In this document: positions 787 through 10,154 of the stretch, in pieces
Layout: every line of letters starts with the position of its first letter
Numbering within the stretch: the stretch's first letter is position 1
DNA from: Candidatus Heimdallarchaeota archaeon
GTDB lineage: Archaea > Asgardarchaeota > Heimdallarchaeia > Heimdallarchaeales > Heimdallarchaeaceae
DNA: 10,154 nucleotides
Assembly: GCA_019057375.1 (NCBI GenBank)
Contig: DXJF01000052.1
Coordinates: 1-10,154, forward strand
Reading direction: 5' to 3'
The notes under the pieces: model-generated
Seen by the model: the letters and a program-made list of their open reading frames with translations, nothing else
Database searches by the model: none
What the model was told of the DNA's origin: nothing
Translations under genes and position numbers: made by a program

Positions 787-2280
787 ATGACTACAGAAGA
801 AAGAAAAGTAAGAGATTTTGGATTAATCTTTTACTTTTGGTTTTTACTAGTAATAGCTGCTTACGCTTTTGGTATTTATGCAATCTATCAACTGGTTGTT
901 AAAAATACAGATTTAGTCCAATGGGTTCTTGAGAAATTTAACTCTGTTACAACTGTTTTAGGAGATTATCTTTGGTGGGTAGCAGGTGTTGCTGGTGCTT
1001 TATTTGTAATAGGTATTGTATTTGCATATTTGCAAGTATGGTTAATGAGCTATATTGGAGCAGAAATTGTCAATACAGTTATTTTTGGTATTCCATTAGT
1101 ACTCACTGGAGCTGGAATTTACTCCTTCATCGCTTTTAGTGAAGTGTGGATTGGAATTGTTCTAATTGCACCTGCTGCTTTCTTGCTAATAATTGCACTA
1201 CTAGTAGGAAAACGAGTAGTTCTAGGCTCTAAGATATTTGAGATGAGTAATGAAGCTGTAAATGATGAAAAAAGTTCTTTGACTCCTGTCTTCTTTTTTG
1301 CATTTATGTCTCTAATTACTATTATAACTGGTATTGCAGCTGCAGTATTTACAAGTGCAAATATCGATCAGTGGTTAACTGGAACTACAGCAGGTAAATG
1401 GGTAGAATATGTTGTGTTCTTCGTTTTGATATATGTTTATTTAGCTATACATTATACGATGCTACATTTCAGTGATGCAATTAATATTTGTATTTTCAAA
1501 AGATGGAATAATTACAAAGATTCTTCCTTGAAAATAGCAATTAGGGAAATCTGGAAAGTTAAAGGAAGCATCGTTTTATTTGGGATGTTCATAGCATTTT
1601 TTGATGCAATAATTAAAACAATCCAATTCTTTGCTAACAGAAATTTCTTTAAGAAATGGAAGAAGAATAAAGTTTGGACAAGAACTATGCTGGTTTTGAG
1701 AATAATATTCTTTATTTTCATAATAATTCTCAAAGGATTATTTAAAATCCTCAAATTCCTTAACTATTATACTTTAACAATTATAGTAGTAGAAAAACGA
1801 GGTTTCATTAGAAGTGTAGCTAGATCAGCTGATTTGTCTCTAGATTCAGCTGCTGATATTATTATCGGGAAAACTGGTGTAAATATAGCTAAAGGTCTCT
1901 TCACTTTGCTGACTATGGGTTTCTTCTCGTCTGGAGGTTTCTTCCTTGGATATTATTGGTTAGCTGATCAGCTAAGTATACCTGATACAGAGTTTGCATT
2001 AGGAATTAGCTATAAAATAGTGTTTTCAATAGCTATAGGTGCTCTGTTCTTCCTATTTGGATATTTACCAACATCAGCTATTCTACGGCCTATTTCCACA
2101 GCTTACAAGACAATACTTTTCTTCCACATAGCTGATCCATTTAGAGGTAATCCTGGTCGAAGAAGTAGAATTTCCGAAGATATTCAAAAGAAAGTTGATG
2201 GAATACAAGCTGAAGTTATGGAAACCTATGATAAAGAAGAAAGACCAACTTGGGAGAAACCACAAGAAGCAAAAGTATAA
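787..2280 (+). CDS. Choline-transporter-like (SLC44/CTL/Pns1-type) polytopic membrane protein, about 10 TM helices
   Basis: 497 aa with about 10 hydrophobic segments. Colinear motif matches to recalled CTL sequences: KVRDFGLIF (TM1); GKRVVLGSKIFEMSNEAV..SSLTP (cf. RKRILIAIALIKEASRAV..SLLYP); AIREIWKVKGSIVLFG (cf. ALRYHTGSLAFG); LFKILKFLNYYTLTIIVVEKRGFIRS (cf. [26 protein letters not shown]); TAYKTILFFHIADP (cf. CVDTLFLCFLED). Confidence 0.8.
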   Translation: MTTEERKVRDFGLIFYFWFLLVIAAYAFGIYAIYQLVVKNTDLVQWVLEKFNSVTTVLGDYLWWVAGVAGALFVIGIVFAYLQVWLMSYIGAEIVNTVIFGIPLVLTGAGIYSFIAFSEVWIGIVLIAPAAFLLIIALLVGKRVVLGSKIFEMSNEAVNDEKSSLTPVFFFAFMSLITIITGIAAAVFTSANIDQWLTGTTAGKWVEYVVFFVLIYVYLAIHYTMLHFSDAINICIFKRWNNYKDSSLKIAIREIWKVKGSIVLFGMFIAFFDAIIKTIQFFANRNFFKKWKKNKVWTRTMLVLRIIFFIFIIILKGLFKILKFLNYYTLTIIVVEKRGFIRSVARSADLSLDSAADIIIGKTGVNIAKGLFTLLTMGFFSSGGFFLGYYWLADQLSIPDTEFALGISYKIVFSIAIGALFFLFGYLPTSAILRPISTAYKTILFFHIADPFRGNPGRRSRISEDIQKKVDGIQAEVMETYDKEERPTWEKPQEAKV

Positions 2281-2310
2281 CTTCCTCTTTTTTCTCCTTT
2301 TTTCCTTTTC
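2281..2310 (+). terminator. Pyrimidine/oligo-T tract, probable archaeal intrinsic terminator
   Basis: cttcctcttttttctccttttttccttttc directly follows the TAA of 787..2280. Oligo-U tracts are the established archaeal termination signal. Confidence 0.55.
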
Positions 2311-2361
2311 CGAATAAGCAAATTTTTTAATCTGTTATGTTCTCTTTATATTTGTGAGACA

Positions 2362-3768
2362 ATGTCATCAAGGTCACCTCGAAGAAGTTTGATAGGGAGT
2401 CATAGATATAGTGTTGTCATTAAATCTACTGAAACTGAATATACAGCCAGTTTGAGCGGAGTTCTGGATTTGTATGATGGTAAGCACGTTGTGGAAACTC
2501 ATAAATTTTCTACTTTTGATCAACTTGCAGAGACAATAATCAACTATTGGGAGAAAAAATTGGGATCTGAAGTGAACATTCATAGATTCTCAAATTGGTT
2601 GTCAGAATACTTTTCTGATATTGGGATATCAAACATAAATTTCTATCAGATGATAGAAGCTGTTAGAAACTTAGGGACAGGAACATCTTTACATTCTTCA
2701 GGTATTGCAATACGAGAAGCAAAAGTAAGAACTAATGATTTTGATCCGATTGATCCCAAACCCGCTAAAGCAACTGGTGCACATATGTTGGGAGAGCTTG
2801 TAAAACCAGATGAAGAGGTCATTGTTGAAAAAGCTCGACCAGATAAACCGCCGGATGATACTGTTGTTAAACCTAGTGAACTTTTCAAATCAGAGGAAAC
2901 AGTTTCACCAGAAGTTAGTCTTTTACCACCTGTGAAAGTTGAAGTTAAGGAAGAAAAAGAAGCACCACCTATCAATAATCTACTTAAACCTAGTGAAGTG
3001 TTGAAAACACGGGAAACAGCATATGAAATTGTAGAAGAAAAAACAGAAGATTATCCAAAGGTATCAGGGGATCCTGTGGTTACAAAACCATTTGAGAAAA
3101 CTGAAAAAGAAGAACCTCCAATTAATAATTTGCTTCGTCCTAGTGAATATTTAAAGAAAAGAGAGATAATCGAAGTAATTTCAAAATCAATTTTCGATGA
3201 ACCTAGCCAAATACCAGAAGAAAAAAAAACTAGGGTTGCTGCCCCAAAAAAAGAAATAAAACAGCATAAATTAGTTCCTCCTTCAGAAATTTTACTCAAA
3301 CTAGAAGAGGAAGAAGTGTTGAAGAAACCCTCAGAAGTTGTTAAAGAACAGGAAAAGAAAATTCAAGAAGTAAAACCGTTTGCAAAAATAGATCCAAAAG
3401 AGCATGAAATCCCTGTGCCACCTTCAACAGGAAAGAAAGAAGTTAAAACAGCTGATAAAATTGAAGCTAAAGCTTCATTCAAGGAGAGAGAGATTTTACC
3501 ATTTGAAATCGAAGTTGAAGAAGATGGTACTACGATAGAGGATTTCGAAGCTTTGGAAAAAAGAACAATAGCTGATTTGAAGGTTACAGACATAATGGGT
3601 GTTGGTGATAAAATTGCAATGCTTCTCAAAGATGGAGGATTTGATTCTTTAGAGAAAATCCTTACATCTACTCCTGAGGAGTTGAGTAAAATCCGTGGAA
3701 TAGGCATAACATCAGCTAAGAAACTACTTTATGGGGCTAATGCTCTCAAAAAAGAAATAGATGAGTAA
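2362..3768 (+). CDS. Unknown N-terminal domain, long Pro/Glu/Lys-rich repetitive linker, C-terminal double helix-hairpin-helix domain
   Basis: 468 aa. The C-terminus (about 3577-3765) reads VTDIMGVGDKIAMLLKDGGFDSLEKILTSTPEELSKIRGIGITSAKKL, two HhH motifs (GVG, GIG) of the RadA-N/HHH_5 type. The middle is low-complexity and likely disordered. The first ~105 aa look globular but I do not recognise them. Confidence 0.8.
   Translation: MSSRSPRRSLIGSHRYSVVIKSTETEYTASLSGVLDLYDGKHVVETHKFSTFDQLAETIINYWEKKLGSEVNIHRFSNWLSEYFSDIGISNINFYQMIEAVRNLGTGTSLHSSGIAIREAKVRTNDFDPIDPKPAKATGAHMLGELVKPDEEVIVEKARPDKPPDDTVVKPSELFKSEETVSPEVSLLPPVKVEVKEEKEAPPINNLLKPSEVLKTRETAYEIVEEKTEDYPKVSGDPVVTKPFEKTEKEEPPINNLLRPSEYLKKREIIEVISKSIFDEPSQIPEEKKTRVAAPKKEIKQHKLVPPSEILLKLEEEEVLKKPSEVVKEQEKKIQEVKPFAKIDPKEHEIPVPPSTGKKEVKTADKIEAKASFKEREILPFEIEVEEDGTTIEDFEALEKRTIADLKVTDIMGVGDKIAMLLKDGGFDSLEKILTSTPEELSKIRGIGITSAKKLLYGANALKKEIDE
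2848..3345 (+). repeat. Dispersed in-frame peptide repeat, hydrophobic-x-[K/R/P]-P-S-E-hydrophobic-hydrophobic, five copies
   Basis: PPDDTVVKPSELFK (2848-2889), PPINNLLKPSEVLK (2965-3006), PPINNLLRPSEYLK (3115-3156), LVPPSEILLK (3271-3300), VLKKPSEVVK (3316-3345). The 18-aa segments at 2953-3006 and 3103-3156 match at 15 of 18 residues and lie 150 nt apart. Confidence 0.8.
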
Positions 3769-4377: not shown

Positions 4378-5481
4378 ATGCATAGTTCAATAAAAAATTT
4401 GCTTGAAGAAGTGGGAAAGAAAACCTCCAAACATGAGCATTCAAAAGAGAATACCACAGGTTTGATTGTAGGTTATGAAAGCAATTCTCAAGACAAGGAG
4501 CACTTCATTACTCATCAAATTAGAAAAATGAAGAAATTTGTTAATGAGATTATTATCTCTCTCCCATTTAACTATGAAATTCAAGATATTCATTTAGCAA
4601 ATGAGTTAAAAGATTTCCCGATTCACATCGTAAATAGAGATAAAAATCATTCTGGTAGCTCTATACTAGCATTTGAAAATTTAGTCAAAAGGAGTCTCAA
4701 TGATAAAATTCTCTTTCTTCCTTTTGATTTAGAAATACCCATTACAAAAATAGAAAACTTAGTGAAGCACAATCATTCATTGTTAACATATCTAGGTTCT
4801 AATGGTAATTTTTGTCCACATCTAGGCTTCTTAGATAAATGGTCAAACCGGTTCAGTTTGCAGATACTCAAATTTAATAAGAAGGAAGGATTGGATGATC
4901 TTTTCAGGATATGTTCCGAACTAGTTTTCTTAAAACTAACAAAGGAAAATCATATCAAGAAGAAGACCTTAATTCCAGAAGAGAAAGTCTTAGATATTGA
5001 TCTAGAAGAATCACGAAAATATTTTCCTCAAAGAGTTCATTATCCTTTAGATGAACAATCCTTGGTAAAAATGATTGCTTTGATACACATTTTAACAAAA
5101 GAAATAGAAGAAAAGAAGAAAATTTCTTCTTCTTTCAAAGTACAGCAATTTATTTCTTTGAGTAATCGATTTGCTAATTCGGGACATTATTTCTTAGCAT
5201 TTCAAGCCCCTTATTTCTTTATCGATAATAAGGAATTTGAAATCAAATTCCCTTTGGATTGGTCTTTTTCTAAAATTTGTGAAAATGGACGTCATCTACT
5301 TTTAGAGGAATCAAGCTTCTATGCAAGCAAAGGATTCGAAAGGTTAAGGTATGCTTGTCTTAATGATTTGATTGAATATAACTTATACAAAGAAAGTGAA
5401 ATTGAATGGATTAAGGAAGAGCAATCCAAAATTTCAAAACTTCTTATAGCGGATAATATCGACCATCAAGCATTTATATGA
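4378..5481 (+). CDS. Degenerate MobA-like (NTP-transferase fold) protein with helical C-terminal extension
   Basis: Directly follows mobB, with GAGGA 6 nt before the ATG. Spacing of TGLIVG, HFITHQIRKMKKFVNEIIIS, D..HSGSSILAF, KILFLPFDL and NGNFCPHLGF follows MobA (xILAGG, LIEHV..VDEIIIS, D...GPLAGI, VLVLPCDMP, GRLEPL). The LAGGxSxRxG and GPLAG signatures are absent. Confidence 0.55.
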   Translation: MHSSIKNLLEEVGKKTSKHEHSKENTTGLIVGYESNSQDKEHFITHQIRKMKKFVNEIIISLPFNYEIQDIHLANELKDFPIHIVNRDKNHSGSSILAFENLVKRSLNDKILFLPFDLEIPITKIENLVKHNHSLLTYLGSNGNFCPHLGFLDKWSNRFSLQILKFNKKEGLDDLFRICSELVFLKLTKENHIKKKTLIPEEKVLDIDLEESRKYFPQRVHYPLDEQSLVKMIALIHILTKEIEEKKKISSSFKVQQFISLSNRFANSGHYFLAFQAPYFFIDNKEFEIKFPLDWSFSKICENGRHLLLEESSFYASKGFERLRYACLNDLIEYNLYKESEIEWIKEEQSKISKLLIADNIDHQAFI

Positions 5482-5500: not shown

Positions 5501-6943
5501 ATGACTTATCAAGCTTTGACTAGTTCTAAACCGGGTGTTAATATATGGTATATGTTGCTTAGGGTATTATTTGGTTTAATTCTACCTTTTCTAATAGAGA
5601 TTTTTGTATATGTAATTTATACAGGATTACGAACTCAGGATTATCAATTTTCCTCACTGCTTTTATTCATCTTTCTAATAATACCTATTATTTTCCTTTA
5701 TATTATATCACCAAGATTGGTTTTCTTCTTTGGAGGAGTTAAGAAACACATAACTAATAATCTGAAAACCAATCTAGAACGTATATTCCTTAAGCCAAGG
5801 CGATTAAAGATTCGTGAGAAAGCTGTTCCTCTTGAAGACATGGAGCATATTCTTAAAGATAAGGAAATAAAGCTTTTGAAAAACAAGATTGAAACAAAAG
5901 TTATTCCAGATTTGGTTAAAGAAGCAAGGAAACAATATTCTCAAAACTTCATTGATAGAAGCCACGGTTCAAGAAATCAAAGGTTGTTAACATATAATGA
6001 ATCACTATTCCTGTTTAGTGGAGTTACTTCTGCATTACTCTTCATGAACTTGATACTGGTCATTATTCTGCGAGGAACGAGTGTTAAACTTGATTTCATT
6101 GAATTGGATCAAATCACAAATTCAGTTAATGTACTTATATTCTCTCTGATTTTTGGATTGTTACTTTTCTTTGGTTTATTTCTCTTCTTTACATCATCTA
6201 GAACATTATGTCGTCTAATTCCAAGGATAGTTCCAATTATCTATTATGAACCTGAAATTGAGAGAGAAAGACGATTGATTCAAATTTTGTCTATTGCTGA
6301 ATTTCCAATAAGTAATCTTTTTGTTCGAAGAACTCAAAGGGAATTGTCGAGTGTAATTTATGAAGCCAAGAAGAGTTTACTTCTATCTAAAATGGTTGAG
6401 ACTATATCTTGGCATTATAGAGATGAAATGGCTAAATCTATAGCGTGGAAACTATATAAAGAAGTATTAGAAGAAATTAAAATACCTGAAGAAGCAAAAG
6501 AACAGATTGAGAAACAATTCAAATATGACCCTCTGTTACAAATCATTTCCAGTCAAATATTGACTTCAGAAGAAGAACAAGCAATCAAAGCAGATTTAGA
6601 TTATATTCAAGAAAAGATTTCTAAATGGGATAAAATCAGAAGTGAAGAACAAACATTATCTTTCTTACTTATTTATCGAACTCTTGAAACTGTCTTCAGA
6701 AAAACCTTAATCAACTTAAATCCAGAACTAGAGAAGGAAGAAGTTAATTTCATAAAATTAATTGATATTTTAGAGAAGAATAGAATGATTACAAAAGACG
6801 CTGTTTCTTTACTACATGAAATCAGATTCAAGAGGAATGTGTTATTCCATGAACCAGGAAAATCTTTGGACATAGGGAAGAAAACGATGGAACAATTACT
6901 TTATCTAATAAAAGAGATTATAGATAAGGCAGAAGAGAAATAG
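5501..6943 (+). CDS. Four-TM membrane protein with C-terminal HEPN-type (DUF4145-like) domain
   Basis: Hydrophobic segments at about aa 14-42, 50-80, 169-190 and 211-231. The C-terminal helical region LLIYRTLETVFRKTL...FIKLIDILEKNRMITKDAVSLLHEIRFKRNVLFH carries RxxLE and R-N-x-x-x-H (6833-6850). Confidence 0.7.
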   Translation: MTYQALTSSKPGVNIWYMLLRVLFGLILPFLIEIFVYVIYTGLRTQDYQFSSLLLFIFLIIPIIFLYIISPRLVFFFGGVKKHITNNLKTNLERIFLKPRRLKIREKAVPLEDMEHILKDKEIKLLKNKIETKVIPDLVKEARKQYSQNFIDRSHGSRNQRLLTYNESLFLFSGVTSALLFMNLILVIILRGTSVKLDFIELDQITNSVNVLIFSLIFGLLLFFGLFLFFTSSRTLCRLIPRIVPIIYYEPEIERERRLIQILSIAEFPISNLFVRRTQRELSSVIYEAKKSLLLSKMVETISWHYRDEMAKSIAWKLYKEVLEEIKIPEEAKEQIEKQFKYDPLLQIISSQILTSEEEQAIKADLDYIQEKISKWDKIRSEEQTLSFLLIYRTLETVFRKTLINLNPELEKEEVNFIKLIDILEKNRMITKDAVSLLHEIRFKRNVLFHEPGKSLDIGKKTMEQLLYLIKEIIDKAEEK

Positions 6944-7029: not shown

Positions 7030-7794
7030 TTGATTATGGCCCATAGAGGGAGAAGTGCTTACACTCCAGAGAGTTCATATCAATCCTTCAAGGAAGCTTA
7101 TGATTTGGATGTAGATGTTCTGGAAACAGATATTCGGTTGACAAAAGATGGTATTCCTGTGATTTTTCATGATGAATCTTTAGATCGTACTACCAATGGA
7201 ATTGGTTCAATTGTTGACTATACTTTTGATGAATTACAAGCATATGATTTGGGCTATTGGTATCAAGATTCTAGAAGTGGGGAATATCCTTATAGAAACA
7301 AAGATTTCAAGATTCTTTCGCTTGTAGAATTTCTTGATAAATTTCCAAAAATTCGAATAAATCTGGACATCAAAAATGAATTAAAAGAAGCTCCTAAAAA
7401 CATACTCGATGCTATCGTTTCTTCAAATGCACACGATAGGGTTTTATTGGGATCATTTCACCATAAACAAGTCAAGAGATTTAGAGATATAAGCGAACAA
7501 TGGCGTGTTCCTACAAGTGCAAGCCCTCTAGAAGTATTAGCTTTTCTTGGTCACTTTACATTATTCTCCCATAAAAAATTCTGTGCTTTTCAAGTACCTA
7601 TGAAATATAATTTTTTGAAAATTGTTACTCAGAAAAGTATTGAAAGAGCTCACAAATGGAATTTAGCTGTTCATCCATGGACAATTAATGATGAACAAGA
7701 AATGATAAATCTCCTTAACTGGGGAATAGATGGGATTTTTTCAGATGATCCTGAACTATTACTAAAAGTATGGGATTTTCATAAGTTAAAGTAG
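7030..7794 (+). CDS. Glycerophosphodiester phosphodiesterase (GDPD, cytoplasmic UgpQ/GlpQ-like)
   Basis: AHRG, ETDIRLTKDG, VIFHDESLDRTTNG, LDIK, LGSFH and HPWTIND..LLNWGIDGIFSDDP. Both catalytic His residues and the E-x-D metal motif are present. No signal peptide. Start is uncertain (TTG 7030). Confidence 0.93.
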   Translation: MIMAHRGRSAYTPESSYQSFKEAYDLDVDVLETDIRLTKDGIPVIFHDESLDRTTNGIGSIVDYTFDELQAYDLGYWYQDSRSGEYPYRNKDFKILSLVEFLDKFPKIRINLDIKNELKEAPKNILDAIVSSNAHDRVLLGSFHHKQVKRFRDISEQWRVPTSASPLEVLAFLGHFTLFSHKKFCAFQVPMKYNFLKIVTQKSIERAHKWNLAVHPWTINDEQEMINLLNWGIDGIFSDDPELLLKVWDFHKLK

Positions 7795-8636
7795 GAAAGA
7801 ATATTCTTAATTTCCTCTTTGGGAACTCGAACAGAACCTAACCTACCTGAATCTCCATGAAAATCTGTTCCTCCTGTTATTAGTAAATCATTCTTTTTAC
7901 AATAGTCGTTAAGAAATTCGTTTCCTGCTTTAATTTTCCTTTTTGAAAGAAATGTCTCAATATGGCTGTAATCATAATAAACTTCAATTCCTTCAAGTTT
8001 CCAAGATATTAGTAACTCGAGGTATTCCTCTAATTTCTGTAGATTGTCACCCTCAACAAGCAATGGATGAGGAAGAACAGCTGTACCTTTCCCACTTAGA
8101 ATCAATTCTATTGCTTCTTGTGGGGTTATTGTTTCTCTTTGGACATAAGCTGGTTTTTCGTTTCCAAGATATTTCTCAAAAGCTTCATTTATTGTTTTTA
8201 CAATTTTCTTCTCGATCATCGCTCTTGCTAAATGTGGTCTTCCAGGACTAACTCCACTTCCTATTTGCTTTAAGATATCATCATAAGTAACATCTAGATT
8301 CATTTCGTTTAATTTCCTTAAGATTTTGAAGATTCTTTCATTTCTTTTTTCCTGAAGAAACACCATTCTCTCGTGTAATCTTGTACTTGTAGAATTAAAG
8401 TTATATCCTAAAATTTCTATTTTTGTTTGTTCATATCTTGCTGATAATTCAATTCCTGTAAGATAAGCAAAAGAATAATTAATTGACATCTTTTCAGCAA
8501 CATTGGTTCCTTCAATTGTATCATGATCAGTGATTGAAAATAGTTGTAATTTTTCTTTTTGAGCTAACTCAAGCAATTCTTCCGGGGAATAAATACCATC
8601 AGAAAAATTGGAGTGACAGTGCATATCAATTTTCGT
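7779..8636 (-). CDS. PHP-domain metal-dependent phosphoesterase (TrpH/YciV-like)
   Basis: KIDMHCHSNFSDG, SITDHDT, GIELS, GRPHLAR, FEKYLG..KPAYV, LPHP, LEGIEVYY, GGTDFHG. The track starts at ATG 8624. I extend it to ACG 8636, which restores MKIDMHCH and sits 6 nt after GAGGTG. Overlaps the convergent GDPD 3' end by 16 bp (7779-7794). Confidence 0.9.
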   Translation of the reverse strand, partial: TKIDMHCHSNFSDGIYSPEELLELAQKEKLQLFSITDHDTIEGTNVAEKMSINYSFAYLTGIELSARYEQTKIEILGYNFNSTSTRLHERMVFLQEKRNERIFKILRKLNEMNLDVTYDDILKQIGSGVSPGRPHLARAMIEKKIVKTINEAFEKYLGNEKPAYVQRETITPQEAIELILSGKGTAVLPHPLLVEGDNLQKLEEYLELLISWKLEGIEVYYDYSHIETFLSKRKIKAGNEFLNDYCKKNDLLITGGTDFHGDSGRLGSVRVPKEEIKNILSYFNL

Positions 8637-8639
8637 AGT

Positions 8640-9053
8640 CTACACCTCAACTCGATATAATTTTTTCAAAATAAGATCTAATTCTTCGAATATCTGATAT
8701 GTTAGGAAGATAATCGCGATGACCCATGTTAAAGCTATCAAAATGTAACTAAAATATATCTGGCTGTCAACGGTAAAAGAAATACCAATCATAATACCTT
8801 CAAGTGCTAATAATAAAGGGACTGTAAATGCGAATAATGGCCACCAGCTGATTTTTCTATGAACTTTAAGGTTTCCATTTTGTTGATGAACGAAGAATTT
8901 GATAAAAGCTACAGGAATAGCTACTTGACATGATAAGGTAATTTGTTTCTCTATTTTTTTCTTCACCTTTAGGGTATTTCTTTCTCTGGAAATAGCATCA
9001 ATCATTTCTATGAATTCATAATCTTTCAGAGCTAGATATTCGTACTCTTTCAT
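8640..9053 (-). CDS. Small hypothetical membrane protein, two C-terminal TM helices
   Basis: 137 aa packed 4 nt after the pcp stop and immediately before the PHP gene. Hydrophobic hairpin WWPLFAFTVPLLLALEGIMIGISF / IYFSYILIALTWVIAIIFLTYQIF. Confidence 0.7.
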   Translation of the reverse strand: MKEYEYLALKDYEFIEMIDAISRERNTLKVKKKIEKQITLSCQVAIPVAFIKFFVHQQNGNLKVHRKISWWPLFAFTVPLLLALEGIMIGISFTVDSQIYFSYILIALTWVIAIIFLTYQIFEELDLILKKLYRVEV

Positions 9054-9865: not shown

Positions 9866-10154
9866 ATGGCTGAAAGTGAGCTTCTAAAATTATCTGGTGT
9901 TGGATCTAAAGCTGCAAAAACATTAGAAGATTGTGGTTATAATACAATAGAAAAATTAGCTAAAGCAACAACAGAAGAATTATCTCAGTTACCAGGCATT
10001 GGTAAAGCTATAGCCAAAAAGATTATTGCTAGTGCTAAAGAAACTAAACCTGCTACTAAGGGTCCTACTGCTAAAAAACCTACTGCCAAAAAACCTGCTA
10101 CTAAGGTTCCTACTGCTAAAAAACCTACTGCCAAAAAACCTGCTACTAAGGTTC
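9866..10154 (+). CDS. N-terminal double HhH protein with Lys/Ala/Pro/Thr histone-H1-like repeat region, runs off the window
   Basis: Not in the ORF track because there is no stop in the window. MAESELLKLSGVGSKAAKTLEDCGYNTIEKLAKATTEELSQLPGIGKAIAKKIIASAKETKPATKGPTAKKPTAKKPATKVPTAKKPTAKKPATKV, 96 codons visible, with SD AGGTG. Confidence 0.88.
   Translation, partial: MAESELLKLSGVGSKAAKTLEDCGYNTIEKLAKATTEELSQLPGIGKAIAKKIIASAKETKPATKGPTAKKPTAKKPATKVPTAKKPTAKKPATKV
10046..10154 (+). repeat. In-frame 45-bp tandem repeat built from three related 15-bp subunits
   Basis: 10046-10090 aaacctgctactaagggtcctactgctaaaaaacctactgccaaa; 10091-10135 identical except one G>T; 10136-10154 is the start of a third copy. 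Encodes KPATK[G/V]PTAKKPTAK. Confidence 0.95.

Follow-up and report, generated by a model that had tools for sequence, protein, structure and literature searches.

Architecture of the P0001 gene and protein

The window analysed here is the whole 10,154-nucleotide contig DXJF01000052.1 of Candidatus Heimdallarchaeota archaeon (assembly GCA_019057375.1, 3.47 Mb, 89% complete), which carries a complete gene, P0001, for a membrane protein of the CTL/SLC44/Pns1 family (Table 1). The open reading frame encodes 497 amino acids from an ATG start and contains no internal stops; the start codon is credible because relatives of the protein align from residue 1 with 100% coverage. Hydropathy analysis and an AlphaFold2 model of moderate confidence (28 homologues in the input; predicted local distance difference test score, pLDDT, 71; predicted template modelling score, pTM, 0.68) identify ten transmembrane helices (M1 to M10) and three short amphipathic helices (AH1 to AH3), bearing out the length and the approximate helix count given in an earlier note on this DNA that was made from the sequence alone. 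The predicted layout is an M1-M4 module followed by three helical hairpins, M5/M6, M7/M8 and M9/M10, with an amphipathic helix ahead of each hairpin. Both termini would be cytoplasmic, and the loop charges agree with this N-in/C-in topology, the M7-M8 loop being the sole net-positive outer loop of the protein with a net charge of +7.

The five motif blocks that had been listed in CTL/Pns1 order in the earlier note were all located, and in that order, at K142-R143...A157-V158..S164-L165-x-P167, G260-S261, L318-x-K320..K323-F-L-N326...F340..S343 and T442...D450, the last of these being spaced one residue wider than in the earlier version. The large extracellular loop that follows the first transmembrane helix of animal CTL proteins is absent, as was also claimed: the M1-M2 loop of P0001 spans about 19 residues (39-57) and contains no extracellular domain. 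A large glycosylated M1-M2 domain is present in animal and plant CTL proteins and not in Pns1, making it a feature of a subgroup, and P0001 belongs to the compact Pns1 type.

The C-terminal tail, which falls outside the Pfam model, contains a motif that is kept across the protein family, reading D-x-E/F-x-G...P-S-R-L-P in most clades and DPFRG..GRR.R in the clade of P0001; this motif may be a binding site for a partner. The pyrimidine-rich tract that follows the stop codon is consistent with an archaeal oligo-T terminator and with transcription of the P0001 gene as a separate unit.

Table 1. Location of P0001, its structural elements and other features in the window.
Feature	Position	Strand	Residues	Remarks
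P0001, complete CTL/SLC44/Pns1-like gene	787..2280	+		Stop codon included
N-terminal module M1-M4	820..1203	+	12-139	Four-helix addition setting the ten-helix CTL form apart from six-helix prokaryotic core families
PF04515 (Choline_transpo) match	1156..2139	+	124-451	Profile positions 1-325 of 326
Amphipathic helix AH1	1207..1266	+	141-160	M4-M5 linker; bears the KR...AV motif
Amphipathic helix AH2	1528..1557	+	248-257	M6-M7 linker
M7-M8 loop	1639..1680	+	285-298	Strongly basic; seven K/R, zero D/E
End of M8	1744..1794	+		Family motif K320-x-x-K323-F324-L-N326-Y-Y-T-L
Amphipathic helix AH3	1804..1845	+	340-353	M8-M9 linker; contains S347 ('RS' motif)
M9-M10 hairpin	1849..2133	+	355-449	Conserved G384-x-x-x-G388, P428 and T442
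C-terminal tail	2134..2277	+	450-497	Predicted cytoplasmic; opens with conserved D450; low model confidence
Pyrimidine/T-rich tract	2281..2311	+		Immediately 3' of the stop codon
Helix-hairpin-helix (HhH) protein gene	2362-3768	+		468 residues; sole recognisable part is a C-terminal HhH module resembling the RadA N-terminus (HHH_5, E 7.7e-10)
Open reading frame	4378-5481	+		367 residues; kept in the synteny of relatives; no Pfam or NCBIfam family
Open reading frame	5501-6943	+		480 residues; syntenic in relatives; no Pfam or NCBIfam family, weak DUF4145 match only
Glycerophosphodiester phosphodiesterase (GDPD) gene	7030-7794	+		Stand-alone; E 2.3e-39; 4.7 kb downstream of the P0001 gene
Open reading frame	8640-9053	-		137 residues; syntenic in relatives; no Pfam or NCBIfam family
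Paralogue of the 468-residue HhH protein	9866-10153	+		Runs off the window end

Membership in the CTL/SLC44/Pns1 family

The search with the PF04515 hidden Markov model, which the earlier note had proposed as a check, returned a significant match to P0001 over the whole profile (E 1.1e-10, 41.7 bits) and above the curated gathering cut-off of 26.9 bits; a six-frame search of the genome with the same model gave 43.4 bits at 1156-2139. No other Pfam family matched P0001 even at E 10, and NCBIfam had no model for it. In a reverse test, all 177,635 distinct PDB sequences were searched with a profile (A2) built from 38 diverse homologues in Asgard archaea. The best match was yeast Pns1 (E 2.8e-20), aligned from profile position 18 and over Pns1 residues 86-495, which take in M1-M4 and almost all of the membrane part, followed by human CTL1 (E 4.5e-10), aligned over residues 214-606 and beginning right behind the extracellular domain (CTL1 residues 63-213). 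The third-best match reached only E 0.33. Neither phmmer with the single P0001 sequence nor a narrow, Heimdall-only profile (A1) found CTL proteins among the PDB sequences, and an exhaustive A1 search returned 66 representative clusters that all belonged to the Asgard family, as judged by BLAST to genome-derived copies, without reaching eukaryotes or other prokaryotes.

P0001 likewise shows the unusual features of the CTL fold, with ten transmembrane helices, one amphipathic helix in each of the M4-M5, M6-M7 and M8-M9 linkers, and a core of three-fold pseudo-symmetry. The same topology of ten transmembrane helices with amphipathic linker helices has been published for human CTL1 and yeast Pns1 (PMC13160678). 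The full-length homology to CTL/SLC44/Pns1 proteins that was originally claimed is thus upheld by the profile match, the reciprocal profile search and the fold; P0001 belongs to this family with near certainty, and nothing counts against its membership.

Among the closest known systems, Pns1 of Saccharomyces cerevisiae (PDB 9F63) shares about 15% identity with P0001, which lacks the long N-terminal region that precedes Pns1 residue 86 and has a conserved cytoplasmic tail of its own. Human CTL1/SLC44A1 (PDB 7WWB, 9QU3) differs by a 150-residue extracellular domain between M1 and M2 that is absent from P0001. The CysZ sulfate permease (PDB 3TX3, 6D9Z) is also counted among these systems.

Distribution and inheritance in Asgard archaea

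The closest proteins to P0001 are encoded by metagenome-assembled genomes (MAGs) of Heimdallarchaeota and Heimdallarchaeaceae (97-49% identity). An Asgard host had been raised as a condition when the gene was first noticed, and the host belongs to Heimdallarchaeia, in agreement with both the nearest proteins and the gene order. The arrangement of a PfkB-type kinase on the opposite strand, the CTL gene, the HhH protein and MobB is kept in all seven of the other loci examined from the same taxonomic family, two of which lie in single-contig genomes. Contamination of the contig is excluded by the recurrence of this gene order in the seven relatives' loci, single-contig genomes among them.

Across the Asgard archaea, PF04515 matched 137 of 400 genomes at E <= 1e-3 and 100 of 400 above the curated cut-off (38 of 85 genera). 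The Asgard profile detected the gene in 112 of 231 sampled genomes at E <= 1e-5, including 24 of the 25 from P0001's own taxonomic family, and in 33 of 60 sampled genera. Candidatus Hodarchaeum is one clade with the gene, the labels Promethearchaeota and Hermodarchaeota appear on other named members, and Thorarchaeota make up most of the nearest Atlas cluster. The most heavily sampled Asgard family, f20, is without a match to PF04515 (0 of 135 genomes) or to the Asgard profile (0 of 49), a 99%-complete genome included. That f20 merely carries divergent copies is unsupported, the Asgard profile having also found none; the absence resembles a true loss in this lineage, or divergence past detection. 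In family f19 the Asgard profile recovered the gene in four of four genomes, where PF04515 gave only sub-threshold matches in 2 of 14.

Outside the Asgard archaea, samples of five other phyla were surveyed with the same PF04515 search, most bacterial phyla lying outside the survey; genomes were selected through an archaeal 16S motif, and those with a match over the cut-off were counted. None was found in Thermoproteota (0/351), Halobacteriota (0/301), Thermoplasmatota (0/251), Actinomycetota (0/301) or the phylum of a Woesearchaeota MAG (0/151), amounting to 0 of 1,355 sampled genomes, nor in 14 control genomes. The sub-threshold matches in these genomes were few and consisted of short fragments of at most 24 bits, several with stop codons. 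Within this sample the distribution of PF04515 resembles that of a eukaryotic signature protein, as the earlier note had supposed.

Two unusual forms of the protein were observed in the Asgard genomes. In f19, open frames of approximately 2,040 residues enclose the CTL-like module (G134:C1:3181037-3182458 and G136:C106:2200-3627), and in f21 (G280-G282, L033:7223-9244) the proteins are approximately 670-710 residues long and bear a C-terminal extension matched by no Pfam family.

A maximum-likelihood tree of 31 genome-derived Asgard copies from eight taxonomic families required seven changes of family label, the minimum possible for eight families; 200 label shuffles gave a mean of 17.8 changes and none as low as seven. 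Each of the families f1, f7, f11, f25 and f31 makes up a single clade with full support, and f24 is not a single clade, as f25 is nested inside it. The branches between families measure 1-2.5 changes per site, and the deeper branching order, which departs from class boundaries, is unreliable given these long branches. The gene is old in Asgard archaea and has been vertically inherited within families. The clade of P0001 is not the closest to eukaryotes by PF04515 score, since three other families score higher (56-73 bits, compared with 37-57 bits).

These data bear directly on whether a eukaryote donated the gene by horizontal transfer, or the contig is itself contaminating eukaryotic DNA, as might be thought from the definition of the PF04515 family on eukaryotes. 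Such an origin is highly improbable given the presence of the gene in nearly every genome of P0001's taxonomic family, its synteny extending to single-contig genomes, and its occurrence in more than half of the sampled Asgard genera. The agreement of the gene tree with taxonomy over long between-family branches, the identity of only 12-15% to Pns1 and CTL1, and the even G+C content of the window (30-35%) with ordinary archaeal genes as neighbours also speak against it. A recent transfer from a eukaryote to an archaeon was rejected on the synteny, the distribution and the gene tree.

Relationship to shorter prokaryotic membrane families

Shorter prokaryotic membrane families share part of the P0001 fold. 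Among the 38 diverse Asgard members, PF04515 matched 35, DUF6159 (PF19656) 11, GPDPase_memb (PF10110) 10, DUF7544 (PF24400) five and DUF7847 one. Coverage differs between these models: PF04515 spans residues ~125-435 of the family members, DUF6159 spans ~205-430 (M5-M10), and GPDPase_memb and DUF7544 are confined to ~270-435 (M7-M10). The core common to the P0001 family and to DUF6159, GPDPase_memb and DUF7544 comprises M5-M8 plus the M9-M10 hairpin, with each of the three matching only the M5-M10 or M7-M10 part, approximately 130-230 residues, and lacking the M1-M4 module. This shared part includes the M8-AH3 region with its '...E..g...a..RS' motif, and it holds all of the residues conserved across the family, namely S347 in AH3, G384-x-x-x-G388 in M9, P428 and T442 in M10, and D450; S347 is the only residue that is invariant across the whole Asgard family. 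GPDPase_memb also has matches in the bacterial controls, genomes in which PF04515 gives none, and the membrane domain of pneumococcal WhyD was previously noted as a remote homologue of PF04515 (PMC9208761).

The suggestion that the protein might bridge eukaryotic CTL proteins and shorter prokaryotic proteins through this region holds for the family as a whole. P0001 itself matches PF04515 only: GPDPase_memb, DUF6159 and DUF7544 gave no match to it up to E 10, and PF19656 and PF10110 gave none in its genome at E 0.1. The extent of the domain matches and their distribution make it probable that Asgard archaea and eukaryotes share a ten-helix elaboration of the six-helix core that is widespread in prokaryotes. 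Several Asgard genomes carry, beside the full ten-helix gene, a second frame of approximately 300 residues that covers only the core (profile ~135-431; G013:C130, G014:C31, G131:C10, G134:C1:1494616-1495431 and G136:C38), and these frames are possible representatives within the phylum of the ancestral short form. No such frame was found in the genome of P0001.

Predicted function

The description of P0001 as a homologue of choline transporters was sound as to the family, and it is the word transporter that lacks support. Nel et al. (2026) detected neither choline nor ethanolamine uptake by CTL1, Pns1 or the plant protein CherI, and judged the closed bowl of these proteins incompatible with known transport mechanisms (PMC13160678). 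A 2026 preprint also found no choline transport, and reported phospholipids held in the CTL1 cavity by a polar network as well as membrane thinning in simulations (bioRxiv 10.64898/2026.10.02.755950). By analogy, P0001 would act as a bowl-shaped membrane protein, as recent structures suggest for CTL1, with an outward-open cavity that would accept the polar head groups of lipids or some other anionic ligand carrying a phosphate; the uptake of head groups into this cavity would in turn affect local membrane or lipid organisation. Binding of lipid or anionic head groups is tentatively favoured as the mechanism of P0001, at somewhat less than an even chance, and a classical choline carrier role is less likely. 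The best overall explanation, that P0001 is a compact archaeal CTL/Pns1 member, old in Asgard archaea, that works as a head-group binding bowl, is given an even chance of being correct.

Residues of P0001 were mapped to CTL1 through the shared profile, the register of which is uncertain at 12-15% identity. CTL1 residues K491, N533, Y495, N497, G441 and D604 correspond to P0001 K320, N366, F324, N326, G260 and D450, with Phe in place of Tyr at one position, and K454, R457, R476, K480, K544 and H584 correspond to D273, I276, L302, F309, M377 and S430 and are not conserved. By this alignment P0001 keeps the scaffold and little of the lipid site specific to CTL1. Pns1 likewise lacks most of the CTL1 pocket residues, and the polar network is thus not family-defining. 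The only pocket residue common to both solved structures is the M8 aromatic, CTL1 Y495 and Pns1 Y394, a position that is Phe in P0001 (F324) and Phe, Tyr or Leu across the Asgard family; F324 and N326 of P0001 align with Y-F-N of Pns1. The M7-M8 loop, which supplies the vestibule residues R476 and K480 in CTL1, has a basic equivalent in P0001.

Several points weigh against head-group binding. Archaeal ether lipids are unlike the lipids bound by CTL1, and an older literature describes uptake of choline, ethanolamine or thiamine pyrophosphate by some SLC44 proteins. Six of the seven residues in the phosphatidylethanolamine polar network of CTL1 are unconserved in this uncertain register, K491 (K320) alone being kept, and the net charge of the M7-M8 loop reaches at least +3 in only 30% of family members. 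The structure model of P0001 is only moderately confident, at a pLDDT of 71, and the absence of a conserved neighbour or an informative fusion leaves genomic context without support for any function. The CTL1 lipid work is itself a preprint and partly simulation-based (10.64898/2026.10.02.755950).

As the main alternative, and in line with the classical annotation of SLC44 proteins, P0001 could be a secondary transporter or facilitator of a small polar solute, whether choline, ethanolamine or a different organic cation, or an anion, for example sulfate or a phosphorylated metabolite. This role is possible but doubtful: choline uptake by CTL1 went undetected by two groups, in oocytes, mammalian cells or proteoliposomes, as did uptake by Pns1 and CherI in the oocyte experiments of one of them, and the closed bowl shape matches no known alternating-access mechanism. 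Most of the CTL1 pocket residues are unconserved, few intramembrane charged residues are conserved family-wide, and across clades no conserved neighbour encodes a kinase or catabolic enzyme for choline or ethanolamine.

A partnership with a phosphodiesterase is suggested by the bacterial fusions of GPDPase_memb with GlpQ/GDPD domains, such as WhyD of Streptococcus pneumoniae, with P0001 then working on glycerophosphodiesters or a cell-envelope polymer. The matches of GPDPase_memb to about a quarter of the diverse family members (10 of 38), the remote homology of the WhyD membrane domain to PF04515 (PMC9208761), and the stand-alone GDPD gene downstream on the same strand, which keeps its place in six of the eight loci of P0001's archaeal family, fit this possibility. 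However, P0001 has no GPDPase_memb match even at E 10, four unrelated genes and the terminator-like tract separate the two genes, and GDPD is missing from all 12 loci examined in other Asgard families, so that the linkage amounts to family-level synteny only. No Asgard CTL-GDPD fusion was seen, and the partnership is improbable.

Neighbouring genes

The gene neighbourhood offers no functional clue, as synteny does not extend beyond taxonomic families and the neighbours have no functional relation to one another; genes found around CTL loci across the Asgard archaea encode CysRS, ThiI, GNAT, Usp, an M29 peptidase, an ABC ATPase, GT2, ZIP and UbiA. No informative domain fusions were found either, the 540-710-residue forms of the family having no additional Pfam domain. 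Within the window, both copies of the HhH protein are kept in the synteny of the taxonomic family, and the complete copy lies within DNA that is strongly A-rich (AT skew 0.25). The GDPD gene is convergent with a PHP-domain gene on the negative strand (7779-8624), and the two overlap by 16 bases at 7779-7794.

Significance

Whether such homologues were already catalogued had been left as a question, and they are: public protein collections label these 'hypothetical proteins' with PF04515, and a preprint of 29 October 2026 lists the cluster. The family link is therefore already known, and P0001 adds a confirmed member together with a distribution, a tree and a residue mapping. The family goes unmentioned in a 2021 survey of Asgard transporters (PMC7997004).

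The molecular function of SLC44/CTL proteins is now openly disputed, given their unusual bowl fold and the failure of several groups to detect choline transport. A compact archaeal version of approximately 500 residues, free of the extracellular domain, glycosylation and eukaryotic lipid modifications, could simplify structural, lipid-binding and transport assays. SLC44/CTL proteins have been connected with plant development and, in humans, with neurodegeneration, hearing loss and transfusion-related lung injury.

For the archaea themselves, the restriction of the family to Asgard lineages within the prokaryotes sampled places a membrane protein on a list of eukaryotic signature proteins that is mostly cytoplasmic, and the relationship with GPDPase_memb, DUF6159 and DUF7544 hints at how a prokaryotic six-helix core gave rise to the eukaryotic family. 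A joint reading of these observations, rather unlikely to hold in all its parts, is that the Asgard proteins are the direct vertical ancestors of all eukaryotic SLC44, CTL and Pns1 proteins, that the ten-helix form originated in Asgard archaea when the M1-M4 module joined a prokaryotic six-helix core, and that the task of the protein concerns lipid head groups or membrane organisation and not choline uptake. If true, P0001 would be a lipid- or membrane-related eukaryotic signature protein, and would provide a minimal archaeal model for settling the function of SLC44 proteins.
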